From assembly GCF_006345805.1 (NCBI RefSeq), contig NW_021833855.1, positions 1-53,073 of the forward strand: a stretch of DNA of 53,073 nt, read 5' to 3'. The translations under genes and the position numbers were made by a program. Origin of the DNA: Octopus sinensis. Taxonomy: Eukaryota. Numbering within the stretch: position 1 is the stretch's first letter; every line of letters begins with the position of its first letter. This document shows positions 2,255 through 46,491 of the stretch, in pieces. The notes under the pieces are model-generated. The model made no database searches and was not told where the DNA came from. It worked only from the letters and a program-made list of their open reading frames with translations.

Positions 2255-2889
2255 ATCTATTACCTCCGGGATACTGAGGATTATTTGGAGTAGAATTAAC
2301 CGTAAAATTATACTAAAAATTGTCCCAAATCACTTCCACCTGAGAAGGATTCATTGCCATTCTTTTTGATGGAGTCGATTCGTTAGTTGAAGAGTACCCT
2401 GCCTGGTTGGGCATTCCATGAGGCTGGCCAATCAGGTTGTGGATTGCGTATGGATTGCTTGCAAGGGATTGTTCTGATGTCATCACCACAGGCATCAAAA
2501 TTGAGTTGGCAGGACCCCGGATTGGTGCAGTTGAAGCTATTTAAATATTTAAAATAAATATTTATAATATAATTTAATATATAATACAATTATTTGAAAA
2601 TGTTGCCTGAGCTTGTAGTTGATAGTATTGGTTGAGGTAATGCCGACGCTCACGTGTGTGGCCTGTCACTGCCTTTGATGCCCCAAGTTTAGCCCGCCAT
2701 GACTATAAGCGGGAAATAAATGAGAATTTATGCCTGATCGAGTTCAACAAGGATCTGTTCGTCAAGACCTTCGTTGATGAAGAGATCTTTGACATTTGTG
2801 AGGACATTGCTAATTACTGATTGGTAGAAGTGAAGCTATATAAAAGAAAGAAAAAAAGAGCAACATACAACTGGATTAGAGCCTGACAT
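2255..2889 (-). CDS. GTF2A1: TFIIA large subunit (GTF2A1/TOA1-like), N-terminal alpha region only
   Basis: Spliced translation MSGSNPV|LHFYQSVISNVLTNVKDLFINEGLDEQILVELDQ|SWRAKLGASKAVTG matches the conserved TFIIA-L N-terminus (LYRSVIEDVINDVRDIFLDDGVDEQVLMELKTLWENKL). Introns at 2836-2868, 2703-2733 (GC-AG) and ~2537-2587. A low-complexity P/N/Q/S tail follows; the stop position is uncertain (2313, ~2255 or ~2181). Confidence 0.8.
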
Positions 2890-3235
2890 CGCAATTCACT
2901 GCTTATATAACAACGATCGAAATTAATAAAATCTATTTAATAGGTTAACCAGACTATAAACTAAATATATATTAATAAATTACACAATTGTTAATATAAA
3001 TAAACAAATGAGAAAGAACCCAAATAAGATAAATTAATAAATTTTTTTTTGCGATAGAAAATATATGCCTACAGATTTACTATATAATCTATGAGCCGAA
3101 AGAAAATAAATAAAAAGAAATATAATTTTATTTAAAAATAATATATTAATTAAATATATTAATTAGAATAAATAATAAAATTTATTACTTACCTGCGTTG
3201 TGGTTAATTTCTTTTGTGATTAAATCTTTTCGAAA

Positions 3236-10604: not shown

Positions 10605-10950
10605 AAAGAAAACAACAGACAAAGGAAGACGATTGCAAGAAGTCAAGAAACAGAAGAAGAAAAATTAACAGAAAAGAAAACGACAGACAAAGGAGGACGA
10701 TTGCAAGAAGTCAAGAAACAGAAGAAAGAAAAATTAACAGAAAAGAAAACGACAGACAAAGGAGGACGATTGCAAGAAGTCAAGAAACAGAAGAAAGAAA
10801 AATTAACAGAAAAGAAAACGACAGACAAAGGAGGACGATTGCAAGAAGTCAAGAAACAGAAGAAAGAAAAATTAACAGAAAAGAAAACGACAGACAAAGG
10901 AGGACGATTGCAATCAAGAAACAGAAGAAAGAAAAATTAACAGAAAAGAA
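10605..10950 (+). repeat. 69-bp coding repeat (~5 units) giving 23-aa STPR-like repeats at the RepHel N-terminus
   Basis: The unit translates as ETEERKINRKENDRQRRTIARSQ in the frame consistent with Helitron ET.E.R repeats. Confidence 0.75.
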
Positions 10951-10974
10951 ACAAACAGAATAAGAAACGTTACA

Positions 10975-13840
10975 ATGAGAAGCCAAAAAAATCAAGAAGA
11001 TCGTTATAAAGAATATCAAGAAATTATATCACGGAGGAATACGAAATTATATAATTCTAAATTATTGGGAAATCTAGGATTTAATTATAATGCAGTTAAT
11101 GATTTTAAATATTTGGGGAATATCGGCACTATGTCCGATATATGTAAATTTTGTTCGGCCCTAAAATTTAAAGGGGAAACAGCAGGCATGTGTTGCAATC
11201 TTGGTAAGGTAAATTTGCCTTCCTTATCGATTCCACCAAAACCACTATTGACGCTATTAAGAAATGAATCGCCGATCTCTAAGCATTTTCTTGAAAATAT
11301 TCGAAAGTATAATAATTGTTTTCAGATGACATCGTTTGGAACAACAGGTAATTTTATTTATACGGGTTATATGCCCACATATAAGGTTCTTGGTCAAGTT
11401 TATCATAGGATGGGGTCACTACTCCCAAATGCAGGTGAGCAACATAGCTTTTTACAAATATATTTTTTGGAAAATTTTGAGGATCAGTCAACAAGAAGAT
11501 TAGAAACAGAACCAAAATTACGTCAATCTATAATTAACATGTTACAAAACATGTTACAAGAACATAATTCATATATTTTATCTTTTAGGACTGTTATGCG
11601 GACTACAAGAGAAAAGGACTATAAAGTAATTATTCATGCAGATAGGACACCTACGGGAGCACATGAAGGACGGTACAACATACCAAGTTCTAATCAGGTT
11701 GGGGTTTTGATAGTAGGGCAACAATATGATAAACGAGATATTATCGTTAATCATAAAGACAGTGGACTACGAAGAATTTCAGAAACACATCGTTCATATG
11801 ATGCTCTACAGTACCCTCTGATATTTTCAAGAGGGGCAGATGGATATAATTTTAAGGTTATGCAGCAAAATCCACTGACAGGACAAAATACAAATAAAAA
11901 ATTAGCTGTATGGCATTTTACTCCTATAGATTCATGCTAAGAAAAGAAGAATTTAATACTATTCATCGAACAGGACAATTGTTTAATCAATATTTTAGTT
12001 GACATGTATGCGAAGATTGAATCTGAGAGACTATTATACTTTCGTTTAAATCAACGAAAACTTAGAGCAGAAGAATATATACATCTCAGAGATGCGATTA
12101 TTAATGATGGTAATGTTTCTGATGTAGGTCAAATGATCATATTACCCTCATCATCATTACAGGAGGACCAAGATATATGCATGAACGAACACAAGATGCA
12201 ATGACATACGTAAGAAATTACGGTACTCCAGATTTATTCATTACGATTACGTGTAATCCTAAATGGCCAGAAATTATTGATAACTTATTCATAGGTCAAA
12301 AGTCCGAGAATAGACATGATATAATTGCAAGAGTTTTTAGACAGAAAATTATTAAACTGATGGACCTAATAACGAAGAGTCATATATATGGGAAGACACG
12401 ATGCCATATGTATACAGTTGAATGGCAGAAAAGAGGACTTCCACATTCACACATTTTGATATGGTTAGTTAACAAAATTAGGCCCACTGAAATAGACGAC
12501 TGCATATCCGCTGAAATTCCAAATCCAGAAGAGGATCTGGAATTATATGAGACCATCAGGAAAAATATGATACATGGTCCATGTGGAATTCTTAATAGGT
12601 CTTCACCATGTATGAAGAACGGTAAGTGTAGTAAAGGGTATCCAAAAGAATTTCTTTTCAATACTCAAACAGGAGAAAATGGGTATCCTCTTTACCGTAG
12701 GAGAAGGCCAAATGATGGGGGACATACAGTGACTATCAACGAAGGCAAGGAAAATGAAATAACAGTGGATAACAGGTGGGTAGTGCCTTATAGTCCACTG
12801 TTATGTAAAATTTTTAATGCTCATATAAATGTAGAATTCTGCAACTCAATTAAATCAATTAATATGTCTGCAAATACATCAACAAGGGGTCAGATCAGGC
12901 AGTTTTTACTATTGAAGGACGGGATGAGGTGACTCAATACATGCATGGGAGATATATTTGCAGCAGTGAGGCTGCGTGGAAAATATTTGGATTTCCCATA
13001 CATGATAGATATCCTTTGGTAATGCATTTAGAGGTACATTTGGAAAATGGACAAAGAGTTTACTTCAATGAAGAAAATGTACAAGACCAAATACAAACCC
13101 AAGGAATTCTACACTAATGGCTTTTTTTGAACTTTGTACATTAGACACATTTGCAAAAACATTATTATATTGTGAAATTCCAAGATACTACAGGTGGGAA
13201 ACTACCGGTAAGAAATTCAAACGAAGGATAAGAGGAGAACCAGTGAATGGACATCCAGGAATTGTAAGTAGTGATGCATTGGGCAGGGTGTACACAGTTC
13301 ACCCTAATAATGCCGAATGTTATTGTGTTAGGTTACTTCTGCATAACATCCGAGGACCGACATTTTTTACCGATTTAAAGACAGTTGATGGAGTAATCTG
13401 CGCAACATTTAGAGAAGCCTGTTTAAATTGGGACTTTTAGAGGATGATAAAAGCTGGGACGACGCATTGACCGAAGCTGGGATTTTCAATATGCCATCAA
13501 AGATTAGATATTTATTTACATTGATGTTGGCATATTGTAATATATCAAATCCTCTACAACTGTGGGAGAAGCATAAGAAATAATGTGTGAAGATATATTA
13601 AAGAGGGATGCAAAATCAGGTTTTGACGAGGACATTTTTAATGAAGGATTACTAATTATTAATAGATCACTCGAATCAGTCATTGGGAAAAATATATGTG
13701 AGTACGGGTTTAGCGTTAACAGTCAAAATATTACAAATAATTTGGAATATGACAAATATAATTTAGAAGAACTACAAAAAATACTTAATGAAAGGGAACC
13801 GAATTTATTGGAAGGTCAATTAAGAATCTACAATGAAATT
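10975..13840 (+). pseudogene. Helitron RepHel protein, frameshifted and truncated
   Basis: CKFCSALKF..E...CC..GK, IRKYN..F.MTSFG, YDALQYPL, PDLFITITCNPKW, VEWQKRGLPHSHIL (HUH motif), MIHGPCG, DNRWVVPY, AHINVE, RLLLH.IRGP. Confidence 0.9.
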
Positions 13841-14019
13841 GATTCGGAAAATTGTCTCAAGCAATTGCTTCTTTGGTGGAAACTTGTTGCTTTTGAAAGC
13901 AGCGGGGTAATAAAATGGAACTTAAATACCTATTCTATACTAATTGATCGGGTTACATCTAAATTACCCAAAAATTGTCCTCCTTCCTATAAAAATTCTC
14001 TTAATCGAACAAACTGGGA

Positions 14020-14660
14020 GGAAATTGCTTTTGATAATGTCGACTCAAAATGTCGAAATCAGAGTTGACACGTCAATTATAACTGAAAAGAAAGTTCAAT
14101 TTAATTAGATAATTTAAAATTTGAAATATTAGTAAATATATTATTCAATATAACAAGCCGGACATTTTTCTATACGACAAAAAATTAAACCAGATATGGC
14201 TAATAGAGATTGGAGTGACGTGTGTGAATAATTTTTGGTTATTACGTGGGAAGGAATAACATCCAGATTCTATAAACACTACCAAAATTCCCTACAAGTC
14301 CAGTCCCTTCAGACAATCGTAATCAAGAAAACATTGAAGAGCATGCTTGAGGAAAACAAGAATTCTGCGGGTCATTAATGCAAAGAAAACACATATGGCC
14401 ACTATCGCAGAATTTTTATTTGAAAATACAATAAAAAGTTGAAAAAATTAAAAAACGATTCAGTCCAATCTGTTACTACCAATGAATTTGTGAAAATCCG
14501 AGTCGATACAAACCTCCTGACTAATAATGCTATCCCAAATAAGGAGGCAGACATATTTGTTTATGACAAATCGAGCAACACAATTACTTTTATCGAGGTG
14601 GGGATCACTTCACAAAATTGTCTCAAGCTGGTCAATGTGGAAAAGTTCCATTGTAAATAA
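14020..14660 (+). mobile_element. Two degenerate R4/Dong-like non-LTR RLE fragments
   Basis: IRVDT..NKPDIFLYDK..LIEIGVT..TWEGI, and KIRVDTNL..ADIFVYDK..FIEVGITSQ. Confidence 0.6.
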
Positions 14661-32960: not shown

Positions 32961-33727
32961 GTACATGAACCACATGTCTGACTCTGCAGTTCCTTGCGTA
33001 ATTCGCAGAATTACTGTGGAAATGTTGTAATTAGAATATGGTTTATTTTTTTATTAATTATTGTTTAATTATCCTAATTTTTAATGGTAAACCTAATAAA
33101 TTATTCCACGTGTGAGCACGCAGTTGATTCACCTTGTGGTGATGTTTATATAATTAACCCTTTTCTTAATTTTTTATATAATTTGATTTAGTGGGAAAAT
33201 TTCGAGATGCAGTTTCTTTTAATGATTAAATTATTTGAAATTTCATCATTTTGTGATATTTTTCGAATTTATTCCTATAATTTGTTTCTTTTACTCATTT
33301 TGAAATTTCTGTAACGCTAATATTTTTTGAAATATTTATTTATTCAATTTTTAATCATTTTTTGGTACTTTTTCATATACTTATCTTTTTCCCACGACCA
33401 GTTAAGTTTTTTATATACAGTATAAACTCCATTTGGGGCATCAATTTTGTAAAATTGCCTGAATTTTTTTTCATTTTTATAAACATAACATTTTTTAAGT
33501 ACTAAAAATTTTTATTCTATTGACGAGTTTTTCGTTATCATTTGTTCATTTGTAACGGTGAGTCATGTAATATGTGACATGGGCCAAATGATACTTATCC
33601 GATGCGCGTTACACTGACCTTCAATTAATGTTAATCTGTCAATTTTTTTTTATTTTTCAAATATTTCTCAATATAAGAACAAAATAAATTTTTAATTAGT
33701 AACATATTGAAATAAGTTAGTCAATGA

Positions 33728-35005
33728 TTAAAAGGCACTTGCGGTTGCACGCATGATGGAGTGTGCATTGCCGCGAACGACAGCTATTCCAATTTGTTGG
33801 AATAACCATGACACTTCTCGAGGCTCCCCACGTCGCCTAGCAACTTTTCCTCCGACTTCTCTGATGAAAGAAGTCGTAAGAGGGCCGGTTACCCCAGAAG
33901 TCTCCACAGCGATAGGTACGAAGCGGTACCGTTGTCCAAGATTTGCGTATTTGGCAATTTTTCTTTGCTCTGCAGCATCTGCTGCAGAACCTGGAGAAAC
34001 AGCAGAAGAGATCATATTAGTTTTGGAATGGGTGTCAACACACGTTGAATCCCAAACCAACGATTTTCTACAGGAGTAGGGAAAAGTGGTCATTCCATCG
34101 GGTCTTTTCCCATCTCCACGATCTTTGGAACAACCATTGCTTCTCCCGAGGCTCTCTCCGTCTCCTCGAGATCAGATTCCCGATTTTCCCGACGAGTTCG
34201 AACGATTTTTGGCTCATGACCCCGGTGGTTTCTACGGATATTGGGGAGAAGATGAAGTTGTCCAACAGGTTGGAATATTTCTGAACTTTATGTACCTCAG
34301 CCTTCTCAGCGGCTGAGCCTGGACTGATCGCGGAGTCAACTATATTGGTCTTTGAGAAGGTGTCTGTGCACGTGGAGTCCCACGCGAGGCATTTCCCATT
34401 ACTCCACGGGAAAATGGTGACTACATCTGGGCGTTTACCGTCTCCGCGGTCAAGCCCAACGGGTTCCAGTTCTGTCGGGAATCCAGCTGCTTGTAACGCA
34501 GCCGAAATAGTCTCGTTGATAGCGGAGTGTCTGGGAGCACGGCCAGCACTCCTTCTGCATGACAGGGGATGTAGTCCTTTGTTATCGACTTTACTACCAC
34601 ATCGGCATTGGCTCCCCGAACAGACATTAAGTCCCAAGCGTATTGCTACGCCAATCCTCACACAGTCATTATCGAGAAGGGTTCCAGATTGGGAGCAAGG
34701 GAGGGCATTAAGCCACGCCCCACTTTCAGGTCTGGCAGCGGCACCGAGACAAGCGAGGTGATGCTGATCCAATGTAGGTCTGATTGCTTCCATTTTAGCT
34801 TTGCTGGAGATATCATCCCATTGGCGTGAAATGTTAGATGGAATGGCCAATCCAGATCCCTTCCAGAATTCGCAAGCTCCAGAGAAAACCCGGTCCTCCC
34901 CAATCCGCGAGAGTTACGCAGGATTTGGGTGATGAGGGCTTGGGAGCTCGCACGTGGGAAGAGGAATGCAGGAAGAGCCATGTCCAGAGGTGAACGGAGT
35001 CCAAT
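33728..35005 (-). mobile_element. Two fused CRE-like 3' regions (CCHC and RLE)
   Basis: IGLRSP..ESGAWLNALP..CRCG..HPLSC..RHSAINE..KRPD..WDSTC..ISVETTG..WLFQR, joined to a second DRGDGKRPDG..FVPIAVETSG..AVVRGNA*. Confidence 0.88.
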
Positions 35006-35029
35006 TTTTCAAATTGAAAGAAAAAAGAG

Positions 35030-36110
35030 AGAATTAAATAGTTATTAACTAACTAAATTCCCGGCCTCGTAAATGGAAACACAGTTTCTACGTACTATAG
35101 CCAAGGAAAACAATTCGTCGAATGCGTTGTCCAAATGGCTCACTTGCCTTCTCCATAAAAATTCTACAAATTAAATCTGAATATTTAATACCTGCAAAGT
35201 ATTCACCCATATAGTGGCGTGCGGTTCCTCTTTCTCTCTTATTGCGCCATTTTGCGTTCCCCCACATTCTATATTTTTGTATATAATTTTTGCTACACGA
35301 ACCTCTCAACAGTCTGGGTATGTGCACCGGTCTTCGGGTCTACAAAATTTCGTTTGCAAATTTATAAATGAATTATAATAAACTTGTGATTAACTGTAAG
35401 GTGCACATAAGCAAGAGCATTTAGATCTGGAGTTGAATAACCTATTAACAAGGATAAAGTAATTACAATTACCCTTTCATTTGTCAGAGTGTATCACTGA
35501 ACCCGGTGCGATATTTCGATGTATCGCTGCGATTAACGTTCTTTTGGAGCGATCTGGTACCATCTCCAGGAAACAGTCTTTTGTTCCACGACAAATTCCC
35601 CCAAACACCCATTGTTGAGGGAGGATCCGTCCCGCATTATTTTTTTTTCGAAAACATACTTTCATCAACTTCTACGACATTTTCAATTCCACCTATGCAA
35701 TCTAATAATGTAATATAATACCAATCAGTGTGTTCGGACGATTTGCTAAATATGCAGCACATACCTCCCGCAGCGAGTGAGACCAGTTACATATCGTTTG
35801 GCCACTTCATTCCAGTTGACGCCGACACCATAAAATTCCCCCGCCACTGTCTGTCGAAGCTCCACATATAAATAAAACGAATACAAGATTCTAAGGACAC
35901 TGTTGTGCCTTCGAGCCACGTACCTAAAAATAAAGTACTCTCTTATTACACCGTTTCGGACAGAACTTGAAATTCGACACTCGCTTTTATCGCACACCCA
36001 AGTTGTACCATCTCGCTTTAGGGTCATTAGATGTCTTTTGGCGCATTTCTTTTCGGTTGGAATGATTCCAACCTCCTGAAGGAAGGCTACGGACTCCATC
36101 TCAGAGAGAG
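35030..36110 (-). mobile_element. Merlin (ISXO2/IS1595-like) transposase remnant with micro-introns; no TIRs seen
   Basis: FLQEVGIIP..C..H..W.C, SVRN|GTWLEG, VEVDES, QWVFGGICR, VPDRS..TL, IHSD, HTQTVER|MW. Confidence 0.85.
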
Positions 36111-36112
36111 GG

Positions 36113-37330
36113 AATCTGCGCGAATCTGCGTTGCTGATACGCTAGATTTTTCCCAAAAAGGAGATTCGAGGAACGCGCATAAGATAGACGGACAATTGGG
36201 TGGAGTGCCGGGCAGCGGGTGTGCACAACTTCCAGGATGTGGTCTCTGCGAACACTGTTAAAAGCGTTGCGCACGTCCAGCTTAACAAGATATGGAATTT
36301 TTGGATTGCCATTGATGACCAACTCTCTCACCCTATGGGCGGAAGCCTCACAAGCACCGCGAACACCGACACCGAACTGATGTGGCAGCAGCTGAGAGCT
36401 CAAATCAGGGAGGACAACACTGAGGATAATTTTTGCAGAGAGCCTCCTGAATGTGTTTCCCACAGCGATGGGTCTGATGCCCTTATCACTTTTGTTAAGT
36501 GCAGTCATGTTGGCCGAGAACAGTAAATCGCGTGCAAAAGATGGAATATTTCCAGAGACAATTCTGCTGCACAAGGATGCAATCGAGGACAGGAGGCGTG
36601 CACCAGATTCCTCTGTTATGGGCGCGACAAGATCCTTTAGGTGTATCGGCTTTAGGCCATCTACCCGCCACTGCTCGGTGGAAATGATCCAAGGCAGGCT
36701 AACATGTCACTATCTCTCTTATCCTTCTTCTCTATCCCTCTCTTTCCCTTTTCTTTTTCTTTTTTTCCTTTTTCTTTTTTCCTTTTATCCTTTCATTCTT
36801 GTCTATCCCATTTCCCCATTTTTATTCTCTTTTCCTCTATTCTATTGGACTCTTCTGTAGCTATCCCCATGTCATTTTGTTTATCTTGTAAATCTGTTAA
36901 TTCTCGCAAACCGGGTCGCTCCTGCGCCTTTTGCAGTCAGTTTTTCCACCTCTCGTGTGTTAAACTCACTATACGTGATTCGGCGTCAATCCTTTCTTGG
37001 AAGTGCCCCTCATGCCTCCCACACACGTGGATCCCTAAGCCTTCTCCCCACCCGGCGCCCATCCCGCCCGACAAGTTCTTGTTGCTTCTTTCCGAATCCC
37101 GAAGCTTCCGCGTAATCCCTGCAAGAATTCCCAAATCTGCGCTAATCTGCGTTGCTGATACGCTATCCGACATAATCGATCAGTCCCTTAAAAGCAATCT
37201 TCCAGAAACTTGGTGCAAACTATTTTCGTTTCCTTCTGTTTGTCTGGGCGCTGCCCCTCATAAAACGGAGTCAGTAAATAGGAAATCGGCCGCTCAGCAG
37301 ATTAAAGACCGCTGCAGTTCATTTTTTTTT
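36113..37330. mobile_element. Rearranged CRE-like element: RT segment (-) and 5' PHD segment (+)
   Basis: Minus strand 36145-36695: IRPIAVGNTFRRL, QFGVG, KLDVRNAFNSVRRD. Plus strand 36869-37330: PHD finger CLSC..CAFC..FHLSC..WKCPSC and RIPKSA, preceded by a pyrimidine-rich tract. Confidence 0.85.
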
Positions 37331-37359
37331 TAATTTTTTCTCTAATATTCAAATAAATT

Positions 37360-37730
37360 TTCATTAATTAATTTGGTGCCTATTTTCGTGATTCATGAAA
37401 TAGAAAAGTACCAGGAAATCCTTTCGAGAAGCCACTTGGACTCGCAAATGGTTTTCCTTTTTTGCGATCTCGTGGCTTATCAAAAAATTGGTAATATTTG
37501 CAGTCCTGGCATTGTGATACCAATATTTAAAAGCGGAATTCTCAATCTGATTATTCTTTGCAAGTTCTTCTACAGCTGTAGAATCTACAGCTTTGTTTCG
37601 CAAATCACCAATTGGATATTTTTTTGCTTTTTTATTCTTTCAATCTTGAAATATGTACGTCAGTTACAATGTTCCCTTTATCGTCTTCTAGAACATACAA
37701 ATCTCCATTAACGGTTCTGACATAATAAAG
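37360..37730 (-). mobile_element. hAT transposase N-terminal fragment
   Basis: NFLISHEIAKK..PF-type motif. Confidence 0.4.
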
Positions 37731-37759: not shown

Positions 37760-40700
37760 GAAATTTCTCGCGGCGCAAATGCTAATAAAAAATAATCTCG
37801 CGGCACATAATAAAAAATCAAAACATAATAATAAAATTCGAAATTCAAAATTTATTATTTTTACATAGTTTTTCTATGCCTGGCTCAATATTTGATAAGG
37901 CCAGTCCCATTTCTGAATCCAAATCCAGTAGATTTTCTCGCTTATTTGTTTTAATGTTTTGTAATGCAGAAAATCCCTTTTCACAAAAATAAGTTGTTGC
38001 AAATTGTAGAATTATCCGCATTGCTTTATCTGTTATGTTTGGAAATCTAGAACGAATTTTGATCCAAAATTCGCCAATATTTAATTCCGTATGTGATAAT
38101 TTTAAGGTACGATCATTAAATAGTTCAATAAGCTCCATATTTTCGAACGGTGATAACTCATTACTATGACTAACCAAAAATGGATTCCGTATCTAAAACT
38201 AATTATTTAAAATAAATACCCAATCATATTTTCCAATGTCTATGTCTATTAATTATATTTTTCAATTGTACGAGGTTTCATTTTTTAATTCTTTAAAATA
38301 ATCAATTGAATAATCTTTATATTCCGGGTGCTTAGATGAAAAATGTCTACGAAGTTTAGATGGAACCATTGATTCATTCGACAACACCTCCATGCAAATC
38401 AGGCACTGTGGTAAACTATTTCCAGTGCCACAACAGTCAAAACCCATAGATAAAAAAGATGATTTGTAATGACGAATACTCCGATACACAAACATAACAA
38501 ATAGCAACGTGATTATAATTTATTATAATCGTCCCCTCTGTCCAATCCAACTGGTTCAAGCACGTTGGGGAAGCCAGCAGCGTTGAGAGCTCTTGAGATT
38601 ACGTCGTTGATTGCTCCATGGCGAGGCGAGCGGCCTGCGCTCCGGCGGCAGGAAAGGGGGTGAAGGCCTTTCACGTCCACCGTACCTCCGCATCGACAGG
38701 GATGAGAGGCGCAGACATCGAGCCCCAGCCGAAGAGCGACCCCGATACGCAGTGTTTCGTTGTCCAATAGGGAACCCGTCGATGACGTTGGGTAAGCGTC
38801 GAGCCAGGATCCACTATGCGCGTGTGCTGCCGAAAGCAGGCACGCTAGCCGGTGTTGGTCTAGCTCTGGTTTCATCTTCGAAAACGAGTCGGCGGCCCAT
38901 ATTTCATCCCATTCCCGTTGCACAGACATGTCGAACGGGAGAGGTAGGTTAGCGTCAGTCCAGAATTCCAGAAGGTCGGCAGTCGGCAACTCCAGAGAGA
39001 GTTCGTTGAAGGGGAGTAGAACCTCTCGGACAAGTTGCCGGCTTCTGGAAATTGAAGAGAAGTGTGCATGTGGAGCCAGATCTTTTGGCGAGCGAAGACC
39101 GATCCCACCGAACCTGACGGGAAGTTTCGCTTGAGTCCAACCGATTTCGTCAAAAGAAATGTTCAGAACTGCTTCCGTGCAAGATTTCAGTGATTTTTCC
39201 AAGTAAGTCAGAGTGTCTGGATGCGAGTAGCATGGCAGGCAGCGGAGCGTGTAAAGAAGTTTCGGCATGTGTATACTGTTTTTCATAAGGAAGAAAGCGA
39301 TGTGTGAGTCTAACTCCAAGAGACTGCTTGTGAGGTTACGGAATTCAGAGTCCTTCTTCGCCAGATGGGCCTTTAGGCCAGATGGGCTTAAAGGGCATCC
39401 AAGGAAGGTTGCTTCTGATGGCTGGATTGTTTGTGCACCAGCGATGAAGCCTTGAATTATCATGTTGACATTCGGAAAATCCGCCTCAGGGTAGTTGAGG
39501 TTTAGGATTTCCGATTTATCCACGTTAACGTCTAGTCCAAGGTTGCGCAGAGAAGGGATTAGGCGGGATAGGTCCTCGGTGATGGATTCCACTGAGCCGC
39601 CAATGGTGGCGTCGTCCAGGTACCATAAATTGAATGGTGAGAGGATTGATCGTACAGCCTCGTCGATTGCTAAGGCGAATAGTAATGGTCCAAGAGGGTC
39701 GCCTTGTTGGACTCCTGTTCGAGAACGGATGACTTTATCCCCAAAGATAAGTGAGGTGTCTTCCCCGTACGAGAGGAAGAAAAGCTGGGAAATCTCCGGA
39801 GCTCGACGCATACCTCCATTATACGGTCCCTCCTGACGCTGTTGAAGGCATTACGCAGATCGAGTTTGACAGCCACGTGACGATGGAGTAGGGCGTCCTT
39901 TGAAAGAAAGAGAGTTCGGGCCGCGTATACGGCAGCTTCACAGCCGTTTGGGATCCCGACTTCCAGTTGAAGTGGAGCTAGTTCGGTGCTGAGGCGTAGA
40001 CTGACGTGTCGTGCGGCAGCTTTAGCGGCAAGCCGGCGGAACAAGTTGCCAACAGCGATCGGACGAATACCTCCGTCCTTTTTTCTGAATGCCAGTAGAT
40101 GAGACGAGAAGAGTAGCTTCGTAGCAAAATTCGGGATGTTCCCGCTCAGCAACCGGTTTATAAGTGTGGTGATGGCAGTGAGTAGAGTTTGGCCTGCCTC
40201 GGCTGTCGTTTGGGAAATGAGGTCTTTTAGGTGCCCTGGACGTAGTCCGTCTAGGCCCCCACAGGTGCTTTTCCCGAAAGATTGAATTGAGCGTTTGACT
40301 TCCTCGTTCGTCAGAGTTAGGACTGGAGTGTCTCTTGGGCGTTCGAGGGGTCGGAGGTCGACGGGAGGGTCTGGATGTTTGGTTTTCAGTTTGTCGAGAA
40401 CGTCGGAAGTTGGAAGTAAGACCGTGTCATCGTTCATGACAGTGCGGATAGCAGCTCGGATGTCGCCTTCGGCCAGCTTGCTACTGACACGTTCACTCAA
40501 GTTCCGCCCGGAGTTGTAGTCCGGGTTAGGGTGCTTGTTGTCATTTTTCGTGGGTTGTGTGAAGGACAAGTTTGCGGGAGAAGTCTTTGGTAGAGAGAAA
40601 ATTTTGCTAAAGTTCTGTTTGATTCGTGAGGAGAGAGGTTGTGGATTTTTTTCAGTGCGAATCTGAGTCCCGAGGGTCAGAGGGGCAAAGCTGATGAAGC

Positions 40701-41690
40701 AGGTCCATGCTTCCCAAGTATTCAACAGAAGCGTATCGTTGATAACAGTTGACAGGCACATGGCTGTTTGTATGCGTGCAGATTTAGGAATTCGGAGAGG
40801 GATTTTTAGAGACCGGCGGAAGCACGATAATTCGACGAGGAAGGAGTCCACGTTTTCAAATGAGTTACTGGCCGTTGTGGGCATGGTCTGGTGGTTAGTG
40901 AGTATAGGCCCAGAACCGTGGGAAGAAAGCAGACAGGAAGAGCAAAGCCATCTGGTGATTGTCAAGGCGGCTTTCTTGCTGATTTTGAGGCAGTAGAGAT
41001 GGAAATAGCCATTGCAAAGGGAGCAGCGAACCCCATTTTTGCCAGGGCAAGAAGAAAAACAGACACCGCATGATGAAGTCTCGCGGAGGAAAGTGTAAAC
41101 TGGTTTGGTTTCTTTAACACAGCTGCTATTTTTTCCAAGTTTCTTGGTCACCATCTTCTCAGGGTTCATCTTCTTTATCTACTTTATCTTCTTCTTTGTC
41201 TTCTTTATCAGAACGGCTTCCCATTCCGGAATGGCAATTGCCTGATCTGGGACGCCACGTGCGCAGACACTGTCTACTGTCATCTGCTTCTTCTTCCGGC
41301 TCGGAAGCCCGCAAAGTAGAAAAGTACAAGAATCTTGCCACTCGGCATTCCGTCGTGCCTGTGGCTTTTGAGACATCAGGCGCTTCCGGTCCGCAGACCA
41401 CATGCTTTTTAAAAGACCTCGGTATCCTCATCGCTCGGAAGAAGATGGATGCTCGCGAGTCTTCTTGGTTGTGGCAGAGGATCTCGCAATCGTGCGCGGG
41501 AACGCGCAAGCAATCCGTTCGGCTGGGTTAATTTAGTTAACTGACAATTGTTTTGTTATTTACTAGTGGATTTATTATAATTGTTTCATAATAAATAATT
41601 TTTAAGTTAAAAATTAAACAAAAAATAAGTAAATATAGATCTTCACGCGGCACATTTTATATGGTCCCGCGGCACATTTTTGTGCATGTT
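37760..41690 (-). mobile_element. Internally deleted hAT (Buster/ZBED5-like) element hosting the CRE insertion
   Basis: BED finger PQCLICMEVLSNESMVPSKLRRHF..KH; C-terminal YDW|IRNPF..FATTYFCEKGFS; subterminal CGCGGCACA motifs near both ends. Confidence 0.8.
38530..41569. mobile_element. Near full-length CRE-like retrotransposon (PHD-RT-CCHC-RLE) with inverted 5' portion and 12-bp TSD
   Basis: Minus strand 38530-41210: PHD, IRPIAVG, LDLRNAFN, GVQQGDPLGP, WYLDD, CRCG..HPLSC, ending at GLDRGD. Plus strand ~41212-41535 resumes at FPFRNG.CLIWDATC..VPVAFETSG. ATTTATTATAAT flanks it at 38518-38529 and 41570-41581. Confidence 0.9.
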
Positions 41691-45266: not shown

Positions 45267-46491
45267 GGTACATATGTAGTAGTTGGCGGCCACTTTTTAG
45301 CGAATTTTAAAAAAACTATATTTTTTTTGGTGAATAATTACCTTTTTTAAATAATATTACTATAAAAAAATTAATTATTTTTATACAAAATTATTAATTA
45401 TTTTTTTTATTTTAGTTTTGATTCTGGGGGACAATATAAGGCAATGCACTCCATGATTGTTTCAAATTCTTTCTTTTTGGCTGTCTGTCGCCAAATGAAC
45501 TCCGTAAAATAACTATTAAGGTGTTGTCTGACTGTTCCCCTTTGTTTTCTATTACGCCATTTGGCGCTACTCCACATTCTAAGGAATAATTATATAATTG
45601 GAAACCTTTCAATATGTTGGGTGTGTGCACCCGTAGTTGGATCAACAAAACAATATCTGTGATTCACTTGCAGGTGCTGATATCCTGCATCCTGAAGATC
45701 TTTTGTTGAATAACCCTTCCAGCAGTCTGATATGAGAATGGTGCCTTCTTCTACATTCTCAAGAATAGCCTTCGTAAGGGTCTTCATTGTTCTGTCAGGT
45801 ATTGCTTCTAAGAAGCATTGGTTCGTTTCTCTGCAGATTCCGCCGAAAACCCATTGCTCAGGCAACATTCTGCCTCTGTTGTATTTCCTTTTTGAAAAAT
45901 GACTTTCGTCAATTTCCACAATCATTCCTTCACCGCCTATTATATTATAAATTTACGCACACCTATTTTGGATCTCTGACGAGATGTCAATGATAGCATG
46001 CAAATTTCACGCATGTACATTGACCAGTCCACGGTTGTATGTGAAGCCCAACCAAGATTTTCCATGCATATCTCCATAGAAGATATATTTTTTGCCCACA
46101 GGTAGACAAACCGGATTATATCTTCGAATGGTACTTTGGTTCCTGCTAACCACGTTCCTGTTGAGTTTTAATGATATAAATACCAGTTTTTAGACTCGAT
46201 TTACTTCGACAGCCCCTTCTGTAGCAATTCCAAGCCGGAGAGCTGCCAATGTTTAAAGTCATTTGGTGTCCGTTGCGACACACTTTTTTTTGGGATGATT
46301 CCTCTGGATTGCATGAAATTGATAGCTTCTGACATATTTGTGGGTAGATTGAATAGATTGACCTCACTTCTCATTTAAATTAAAGTAGCGTGGGATTTTA
46401 TTATTTTTATATTGTATTATTTTTAATTATATATTTTTTTAACTAAAAAAAATATAGTTTTTTTAAAATTCGCTAAAAAGTGGCCTAACCC
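45267..46491 (-). mobile_element. Merlin DNA transposon with intron-containing transposase
   Basis: Inverted repeat GGCCACTTTTTAGCGAATTTTAAAAAAACTATA at 45288 and 46485; motifs IVEIDES..KRKYNRGR..WVFGGI, ISDCWKGY, VNH..FVDP.TGAHTQHIER|MW; empty site at ~49915. Confidence 0.9.

Follow-up and report, generated by a model that had tools for sequence, protein, structure and literature searches.

How non-LTR retrotransposon integration times the cut of the second strand, and what is primed from that cut, is the half of the process that is understood least. For L1, the original model of twin priming is reportedly that of Ostertag and Kazazian in 2001. Inverted copies make up 18-31% of L1 insertions (PMC2912911 and PMC12016303, partial texts), and 28 of 605 inverted L1 copies (4.6%) lacked microhomology with the target (PMC2912911, partial text). 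The breaks of these inversions show small gaps or overlaps (PMC12016303, partial text). L1 in human cells was the only source of 5' inversions in cell assays, apart from a single Nimb insert, and these inversions were linked to duplications of 10-20 bp (PMC4245944, partial text). In the model for R2Bm, cleavage of the top strand follows reverse transcription and release of the RNA (PMC6895275, partial text), and this order leaves no room for twin priming.

We found no report of twin priming for any element with an RLE endonuclease in the open literature searched. The first-pass annotation of the locus remarked that internal priming on the second strand is not known as a described routine feature of the CRE clade. 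The partial texts of PMC7367193, PMC13580325, and 10.1101/2024.12.14.628481 make no mention of it for the RLE class, nor do the accounts of MoTeR or FoTeR in the parts available, and in PMC2718515, PMC6007223, and PMC5389967 the term occurs in the reference lists only.

Anatomy, target site, and class of the inverted copy

The window (the whole stretch of 53,073 nt from Octopus sinensis that was analyzed) holds a G+C-rich retrotransposon that lies in two orientations between 12-bp duplications. A colinear copy from the same genome, L002 (contig G000:C133), served as the reference, and reference numbers are L002 positions minus 1149. Searching the octopus's own genome with the element gave 76 matches from the best 40 of 281 candidates. 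The features of the locus are these:

37848-38189: hAT dimerization domain near the target (Pfam E 4.5e-7)
38265-38516, minus strand: zinc-finger coding remnant in the hAT-derived target (Pfam zf-C2H2_12 E 2.5e-5, zf-BED E 0.004, both under the cut-off)
38285-38529, minus strand: left part of the host target, a hAT-derived element (98% to empty copies)
38518-38529, plus strand: left target-site duplication, ATTTATTATAAT, present once in 11 empty sites; its 3' end is the putative second primer
38530-41217, minus strand: inverted front, about 2.7 kb, equal to reference 2783 to 93 (96.5% to colinear L002)
38531-38698, minus strand: first half of the RLE endonuclease, with CCHC knuckle, RH, and E, to GLDRGD (ORF translation; motif spacing from L002)
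39392-40086, minus strand: reverse transcriptase, split into two frames where 4 nt are deleted near 39801 (Pfam RVT_1, E 9.9e-9 in one frame, 0.0015 in the other)
40933-41070, minus strand: N-terminal PHD finger (Pfam PHD E 2.2e-6, above the cut-off)
41217: inversion junction, with 1-nt microhomology (C); reference 2784-2808 (25 nt) is absent
41217-41562, plus strand: forward 3' end, from FPFRNG..WD to the 3' UTR, equal to reference 2809-3187, with private deletions of 13, 15, and 4 nt
41563-41569, plus strand: 7 nt unlike other copies, at the position of the poly(A)
41570-41581, plus strand: right target-site duplication, the same 12-mer, present once in 11 empty sites
41570-41676, minus strand: right part of the host target, a hAT-derived element (97% to one empty copy)

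In other copies the two parts stand colinear and 25 nt apart. Alignment to L002 bore out the earlier description of a reverse complement that runs up to GLDRGD and is followed by the forward FPFRNG..WD end, and it confirmed that the internal break lies at the outer junction, where reference 2783 abuts the left duplication directly, without a sense stub. Two details were corrected. The forward part had been said to resume about 7 codons later; it does resume after a short gap, of 25 nt or about 8 codons. The 5' end had been placed at the inversion junction; the 5' side does lie there, and the first 40 nt or so, counted from the 5' end that L002, L003, L055, and L056 define, are missing. The 25 nt lost at the break fall in GKRPDGMTT and include the catalytic PD, so this copy was likely dead on arrival. 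A poly(A) tail is absent from it, and its target junction has 0 nt of microhomology.

Of the four deletions of at least 4 nt in the window copy, three sit in the forward half, which is 379 nt long (binomial p 0.007, tested post hoc). These private deletions cluster within 41271-41484, and the inverted 2.7 kb has one, of 4 nt. The cluster perhaps reflects error-prone fill-in or later decay.

The insertion target is a multicopy, short, hAT-derived element. Within the whole window, on both strands, ATTTATTATAAT occurs only at the two places listed above. Among 18 non-self loci fetched, the anchor was located in 11, and in all 11 of these anchor-bearing copies the 12-mer is single and the sequence continues like that of the window past 41581. 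Therefore, the 12-mers are a true target-site duplication, as the first-pass annotation had maintained. Elsewhere in the window, the ORF at 10876-14068 is presumably Helitron Rep/helicase-like, and we take that at 45590-45952 to be Merlin/IS1595-type transposase-like.

Dispersed CRE-like families exist in animals (Repbase). The element is a PHD-RT-RLE retrotransposon with a single ORF, plausibly of the CRE clade, and we filed it as CRE-like. RVT_1 was present in all 12 aligned relatives, and sister copies held 13 intact ORFs of 884-1051 aa, the ORF being broken in the window copy; Pfam scans of the window and relatives gave no APE family. The endonuclease motif in L002 is CX1CX9HX3CX8RHGX19EX10RPDX15D, which has the same residue order as the SLACS/CRE pattern (PMC12857005, partial text), with three spacers off by one and RHG for RHD/N. 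The named homologues came from the protein annotations of an octopus, a barnacle, moths, and a tardigrade and included no curated reference sequence; the barnacle protein (40% identical) carries the automatic name SLACS protein. The best solved relatives are R2 proteins (PDB 9nl2, 9nl3, 9dou, 8gh6; profile E 7e-17 to 6e-9).

With the CRE clade (CRE1/2, SLACS, CZAR, MoTeR, Cnl1, and FoTeR; features after the partial text of PMC12278014) the element shares a reverse transcriptase and an RLE motif whose spacing is close to that of the clade. Many octopus copies, across the CRE-like families, also end in poly(A) and are flanked by duplications, as in that clade; of these two features the window copy has only the duplication. 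In contrast to that clade, the octopus copies are dispersed in A+T-rich DNA and not in spliced-leader genes or telomeres, have a PHD finger, and carry the RHG variant. No spliced-leader RNA gene was found as their target; the flanks vary among copies and that of the window copy is a hAT-derived element, so the element is not a CRE of the trypanosomatid type. With R2 it has in common the single ORF, the reverse transcriptase, the C-terminal CCHC and RLE, and the snap-back inversions seen in engineered R2 insertions (PMC11371274, partial text). It differs from R2 (R2Bm, avian, turtle) in that it is not specific for 28S rDNA, bears an N-terminal PHD finger, and makes a staggered cut that gives duplications.

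Origin of the two halves and soundness of the assembly

Over the 500 nt next to the break, the inverted half is 1.5-3.4% away from young copies and 11-15% away from copies of an older subfamily. The 3' half is about 3-5% away from those young copies, and overall the two halves are equally close to them (2-4%). Private substitutions amount to 20 of 2674 nt (0.75%) in the inverted half and 2 of 324 nt (0.62%) in the forward half. Judged by these divergences, both halves are from one young family and of equal age. An origin of the halves from different subfamilies, which the first-pass annotation had named as a possible refutation, is ruled out at the family level by the shared young relatives and the equal private divergence. 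The 3' half is closest to L039 and L044, short copies that do not extend into the inverted half, and the family is a mosaic, so a single source element for both halves is putative. Three copies (L020, L028, and L046) diverge from the young family by 7-12% over the 500 nt that precede the break position and by 3-4% over the last 380 nt, which suggests recombination or template switching between subfamilies.

A second contig (G000:C12971, locus L327) aligns with about 7.5 kb of the window at 97-99.7% identity and has flanks that are about 2% different. The outer junction is identical in it base for base, with 100% identity over 38300-39086. This contig ends at window position 39086, short of the inversion junction. 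None of the assembled read contigs spanned 41217 or the inverted joint; four runs hold parts of the stretch, and the gap there weighs neither way. Misassembly had been raised earlier as another possible refutation of the twin-priming reading; the second contig makes it unlikely for the outer junction, and the inversion junction is bridged by no read contig. As a separate observation, G000:C12971 has about 450 bp in place of the 3.8-kb block at 33651-37444, which contains fragments of CRE-like elements and a piece resembling a DNA transposon.

Recurrence of inverted copies

The first-pass annotation had proposed to count inverted against colinear insertions, and the count was made on two samples. 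For the family of the window copy (family A; loci L001-L066), 45 copies with a 3' end were reduced to 40 by automatic flank de-duplication and to 38 by removal of L018, the same copy as L007, and of one of L050/L051; they are the best-scoring part of 143-281 candidates per search. Two of the 38 were inverted, the window copy and L007. The latter has a 15-bp duplication, a poly(A) tail, and a 7-nt gap at the break, and at its target junction the duplication ends in 4 bases that match the RNA where the break lies (6 bases match when the final 7 are compared). The inversions end at reference 93 in the window copy and 97 in L007. Both inverted copies with a 3' end thus reach the first 100 nt of the element, versus 2 of 36 colinear ones (Fisher p 0.009), so the break is tied to the 5' end of the RNA. 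Another family A locus (L066/L119) has a 290-nt inversion and has lost its 3' end. At L008-L010/L064, elements are joined tail to tail.

For the other families, a protein search with the PHD region was scored for the best 150 of 679 candidates, and 147 loci were examined with a profile of the 13 natural ORFs; only copies that keep the PHD region were selected, and short inversions escape such a survey. It held 76 complete colinear elements (69 distinct by flank) versus three complete inverted ones (L134, L141, and L202), that is, 3 of 72. The inverted share was thus about 4-5% of the sampled copies. In L134, a 13-bp duplication and poly(A) go together with a 125-nt overlap, a 40-nt filler, and a target-junction match of about 2 nt. 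L141 has an 8-bp duplication, a 4-nt match (TACA) at the target junction, and an inversion that runs to the exact 5' end. L202 also reaches the exact 5' end and contains a templated filler; no target-site duplication was found at this locus. A truncated copy, L194, was found by chance in a flank and has a 62-nt inversion, a duplication of about 12 bp, and a 1-nt match.

Altogether, five duplication-flanked inverted events came from four families, and in each the inverted part meets the edge of the duplication to within 0-2 nt. The target-junction matches were 0 nt in the window copy, 4 in L007, about 2 in L134, 4 in L141, and 1 in L194. A match of at least 4 nt therefore occurs in two of the five, and its chance at a random site is 0.006 for L007 and 0.002 for L141. 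The break falls at a different position in each copy and leaves a small gap or overlap, as in L1. Four more inverted copies lack a duplication that could be assessed: L202, L066/L119, L231, and a copy of a second CRE-like family at 36113-37323 of the window. L231 is inverted and has lost its 3' end, which was not found within 10 kb. In the second window copy, the front 612 nt are inverted and stop about 65 nt before the 5' end, with a 287-nt gap and a 32-nt inverted piece on the other side; its 3' end is lost as well.

Several candidates were rejected. In L206, L209, L226, L229, and L200, the pieces belong to different families or are not adjacent, and in L196, L128, L140, L130, L161, L153, L225, and L167, no inverted self-match links the two pieces. 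Metagenome loci showed pieces on both strands in 0 of 80 cases, these being the best 80 of 548, mostly single collapsed contigs and biased to colinear copies.

Probable twin priming and its alternatives

The window copy is probably a twin-primed insertion, in which both nicked target strands primed on one RNA. The RLE endonuclease would have nicked the bottom strand, and copying would have started at the 3' end of the RNA. The top strand would have been cut 12 nt away before this first copying had passed about 400 nt, and its freed 3' end would have primed inside the RNA, at the endonuclease codons, and been extended almost to the 5' end. The first cDNA would then have halted 25 nt short of the second priming site, and host repair would have joined the two cDNA ends with a loss of about 40 nt. 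We infer all of these steps from the scar; its geometry, the duplication, the deletion, the single family, and the recurrence are observed.

The first-pass annotation had arrived at the same reading, which is supported by a geometry equal to that of 5'-inverted L1 (PMC2912911, partial text), by the true duplication, and by the recurrence in five events. The evidence in its favor includes this duplication and recurrence together with an inverted part that abuts the duplication without a sense stub; against it, the window copy has neither microhomology at the target junction nor poly(A). The microhomology that had been predicted at the priming site of the window copy was thus not found (0 nt), and 4-nt matches appeared only in the sister events L007 and L141. 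A longer original duplication followed by a small deletion could hide a 4-nt match at the outer junction; this is a post hoc account and was not counted.

The CRE-like copies resemble inverted L1 in the duplication, the inverted front starting from an internal break, the forward 3' part, the small gap or overlap, and the microhomology in some copies. Their duplications measure 8-15 bp, close to the 10-20 bp that have been proposed as a requirement (PMC4245944, partial text). In contrast to L1, the octopus element has an RLE and not an APE endonuclease and a single ORF without ORF1, and about 4-5% of its copies are inverted versus 18-31%. Most CRE-like inversions also run nearly to the 5' end, a near-full-length bias that is partly built into the PHD-based survey, since short inversions exist (L066 and L194); the lack of microhomology and poly(A) in the window copy is a further difference.

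Snap-back followed by repair is the strongest alternative and, in our judgment, an unlikely one. A near-full first cDNA would fold back on itself, and the long hairpin would be joined to the target and lose one arm, with a single priming on the RNA. R2 proteins in human cells do produce such junctions, in which antisense sequence is attached to the target on its upstream side, frequently once a full-length cDNA has been made (PMC11371274, partial text). In the octopus genome, L207 (G000:C10278; 3228-3430) has this form: a 12-bp duplication, a 133-nt inverted interior piece that is 99% identical to its own downstream sequence, a templated filler, and a near-full forward copy; a short, displaced second cDNA would make this locus compatible with twin priming as well. 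Snap-back would account both for inversions that end near the 5' end and for the missing priming microhomology in the window copy, and L202 and L134 contain templated fillers, a sign of repair synthesis. However, it needs a second step that trims the forward arm to within 5-125 nt of the end of the inverted arm in every case, and no long palindromic copies were found among the 147 survey loci, in which adjacent head-to-head pairs were checked (L196 and L128 are pairs of different families).

Somewhat less probable still is that a near-full colinear copy was inserted first and its front was inverted later by repair of DNA breaks. Such an event is present in this genome: L183 is a duplicate of the L147/L208 locus in which the first 500 bp were inverted later, and it has the same inner geometry and no duplication. 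Because of L183, inverted copies without a duplication were not counted as proof of twin priming. The tail-to-tail joins at L008-L010/L064 are likewise DNA-level rearrangements of these elements, and the three private deletions in the 3' half of the window copy and its lack of microhomology would suit this course of events. Nevertheless, a later inversion would have had to place one break exactly at the edge of the duplication and remove the first 40 nt while leaving the duplication unharmed, whereas L183 lost about 2.7 kb of flank in its inversion. The exact edge (0-2 nt) is shared by all five duplication-flanked events. Moreover, no colinear allele with these flanks was seen, and G000:C12971 carries the outer junction of the inverted front too. 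Snap-back and later DNA inversions both occur in this genome, so for the window copy we can only infer the mechanism.

An assembly error that fused two repeat copies is very improbable. In its favor, no read contig bridged 41217 (four runs, then four runs), the family is a repeated one, and indel noise is seen in several copies. Against it, a second contig with diverged sequence has the same outer junction, the two outer ends taken together exactly recreate a single empty site, and the fillers and microhomologies in sister events are not what an assembler would produce.

Thus, the pattern is real and recurrent; the mechanism is one already known, and its probable extension to the RLE branch is the gain. 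If twin priming took place at this locus, the top strand was cut while copying was still under way, contrary to the R2Bm model. For a more general proposal, we hold the chances to be evenly balanced: dispersed CRE-like RLE elements would cut the second strand while the RNA is mostly uncopied, and the overhang of 8-15 nt would prime a highly processive second copying to the 5' end. Twin priming would then be ancestral to target-primed reverse transcription and set by the stagger of the cuts, not an L1 speciality, and the R2Bm order would not be general to RLE elements. The natural inverted copies in four RLE families provide evidence for an earlier cut, and the intact ORFs of the same families provide the material to test it. 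RLE proteins, those of CRE elements included, are being screened for gene insertion (PMC13580325, partial text), for which inverted products are an unwanted outcome.

Two side observations concern these elements in general. Only 1 of the best 150 PHD-bearing matches lay on a chromosome-size contig (C1, 213 Mb), and the other fetched ones were on element-dense contigs of at most 1.3 Mb; these contigs could be repeat-rich DNA that was never placed, or DNA of another organism assembled along with the octopus. In full-length copies from several families (L002, L055, L111, L130, L140, L225, and L244), the 5' start reads ACGT, CACGT, or GCGCGTG, followed by GTT-rich and pyrimidine-rich sequence.
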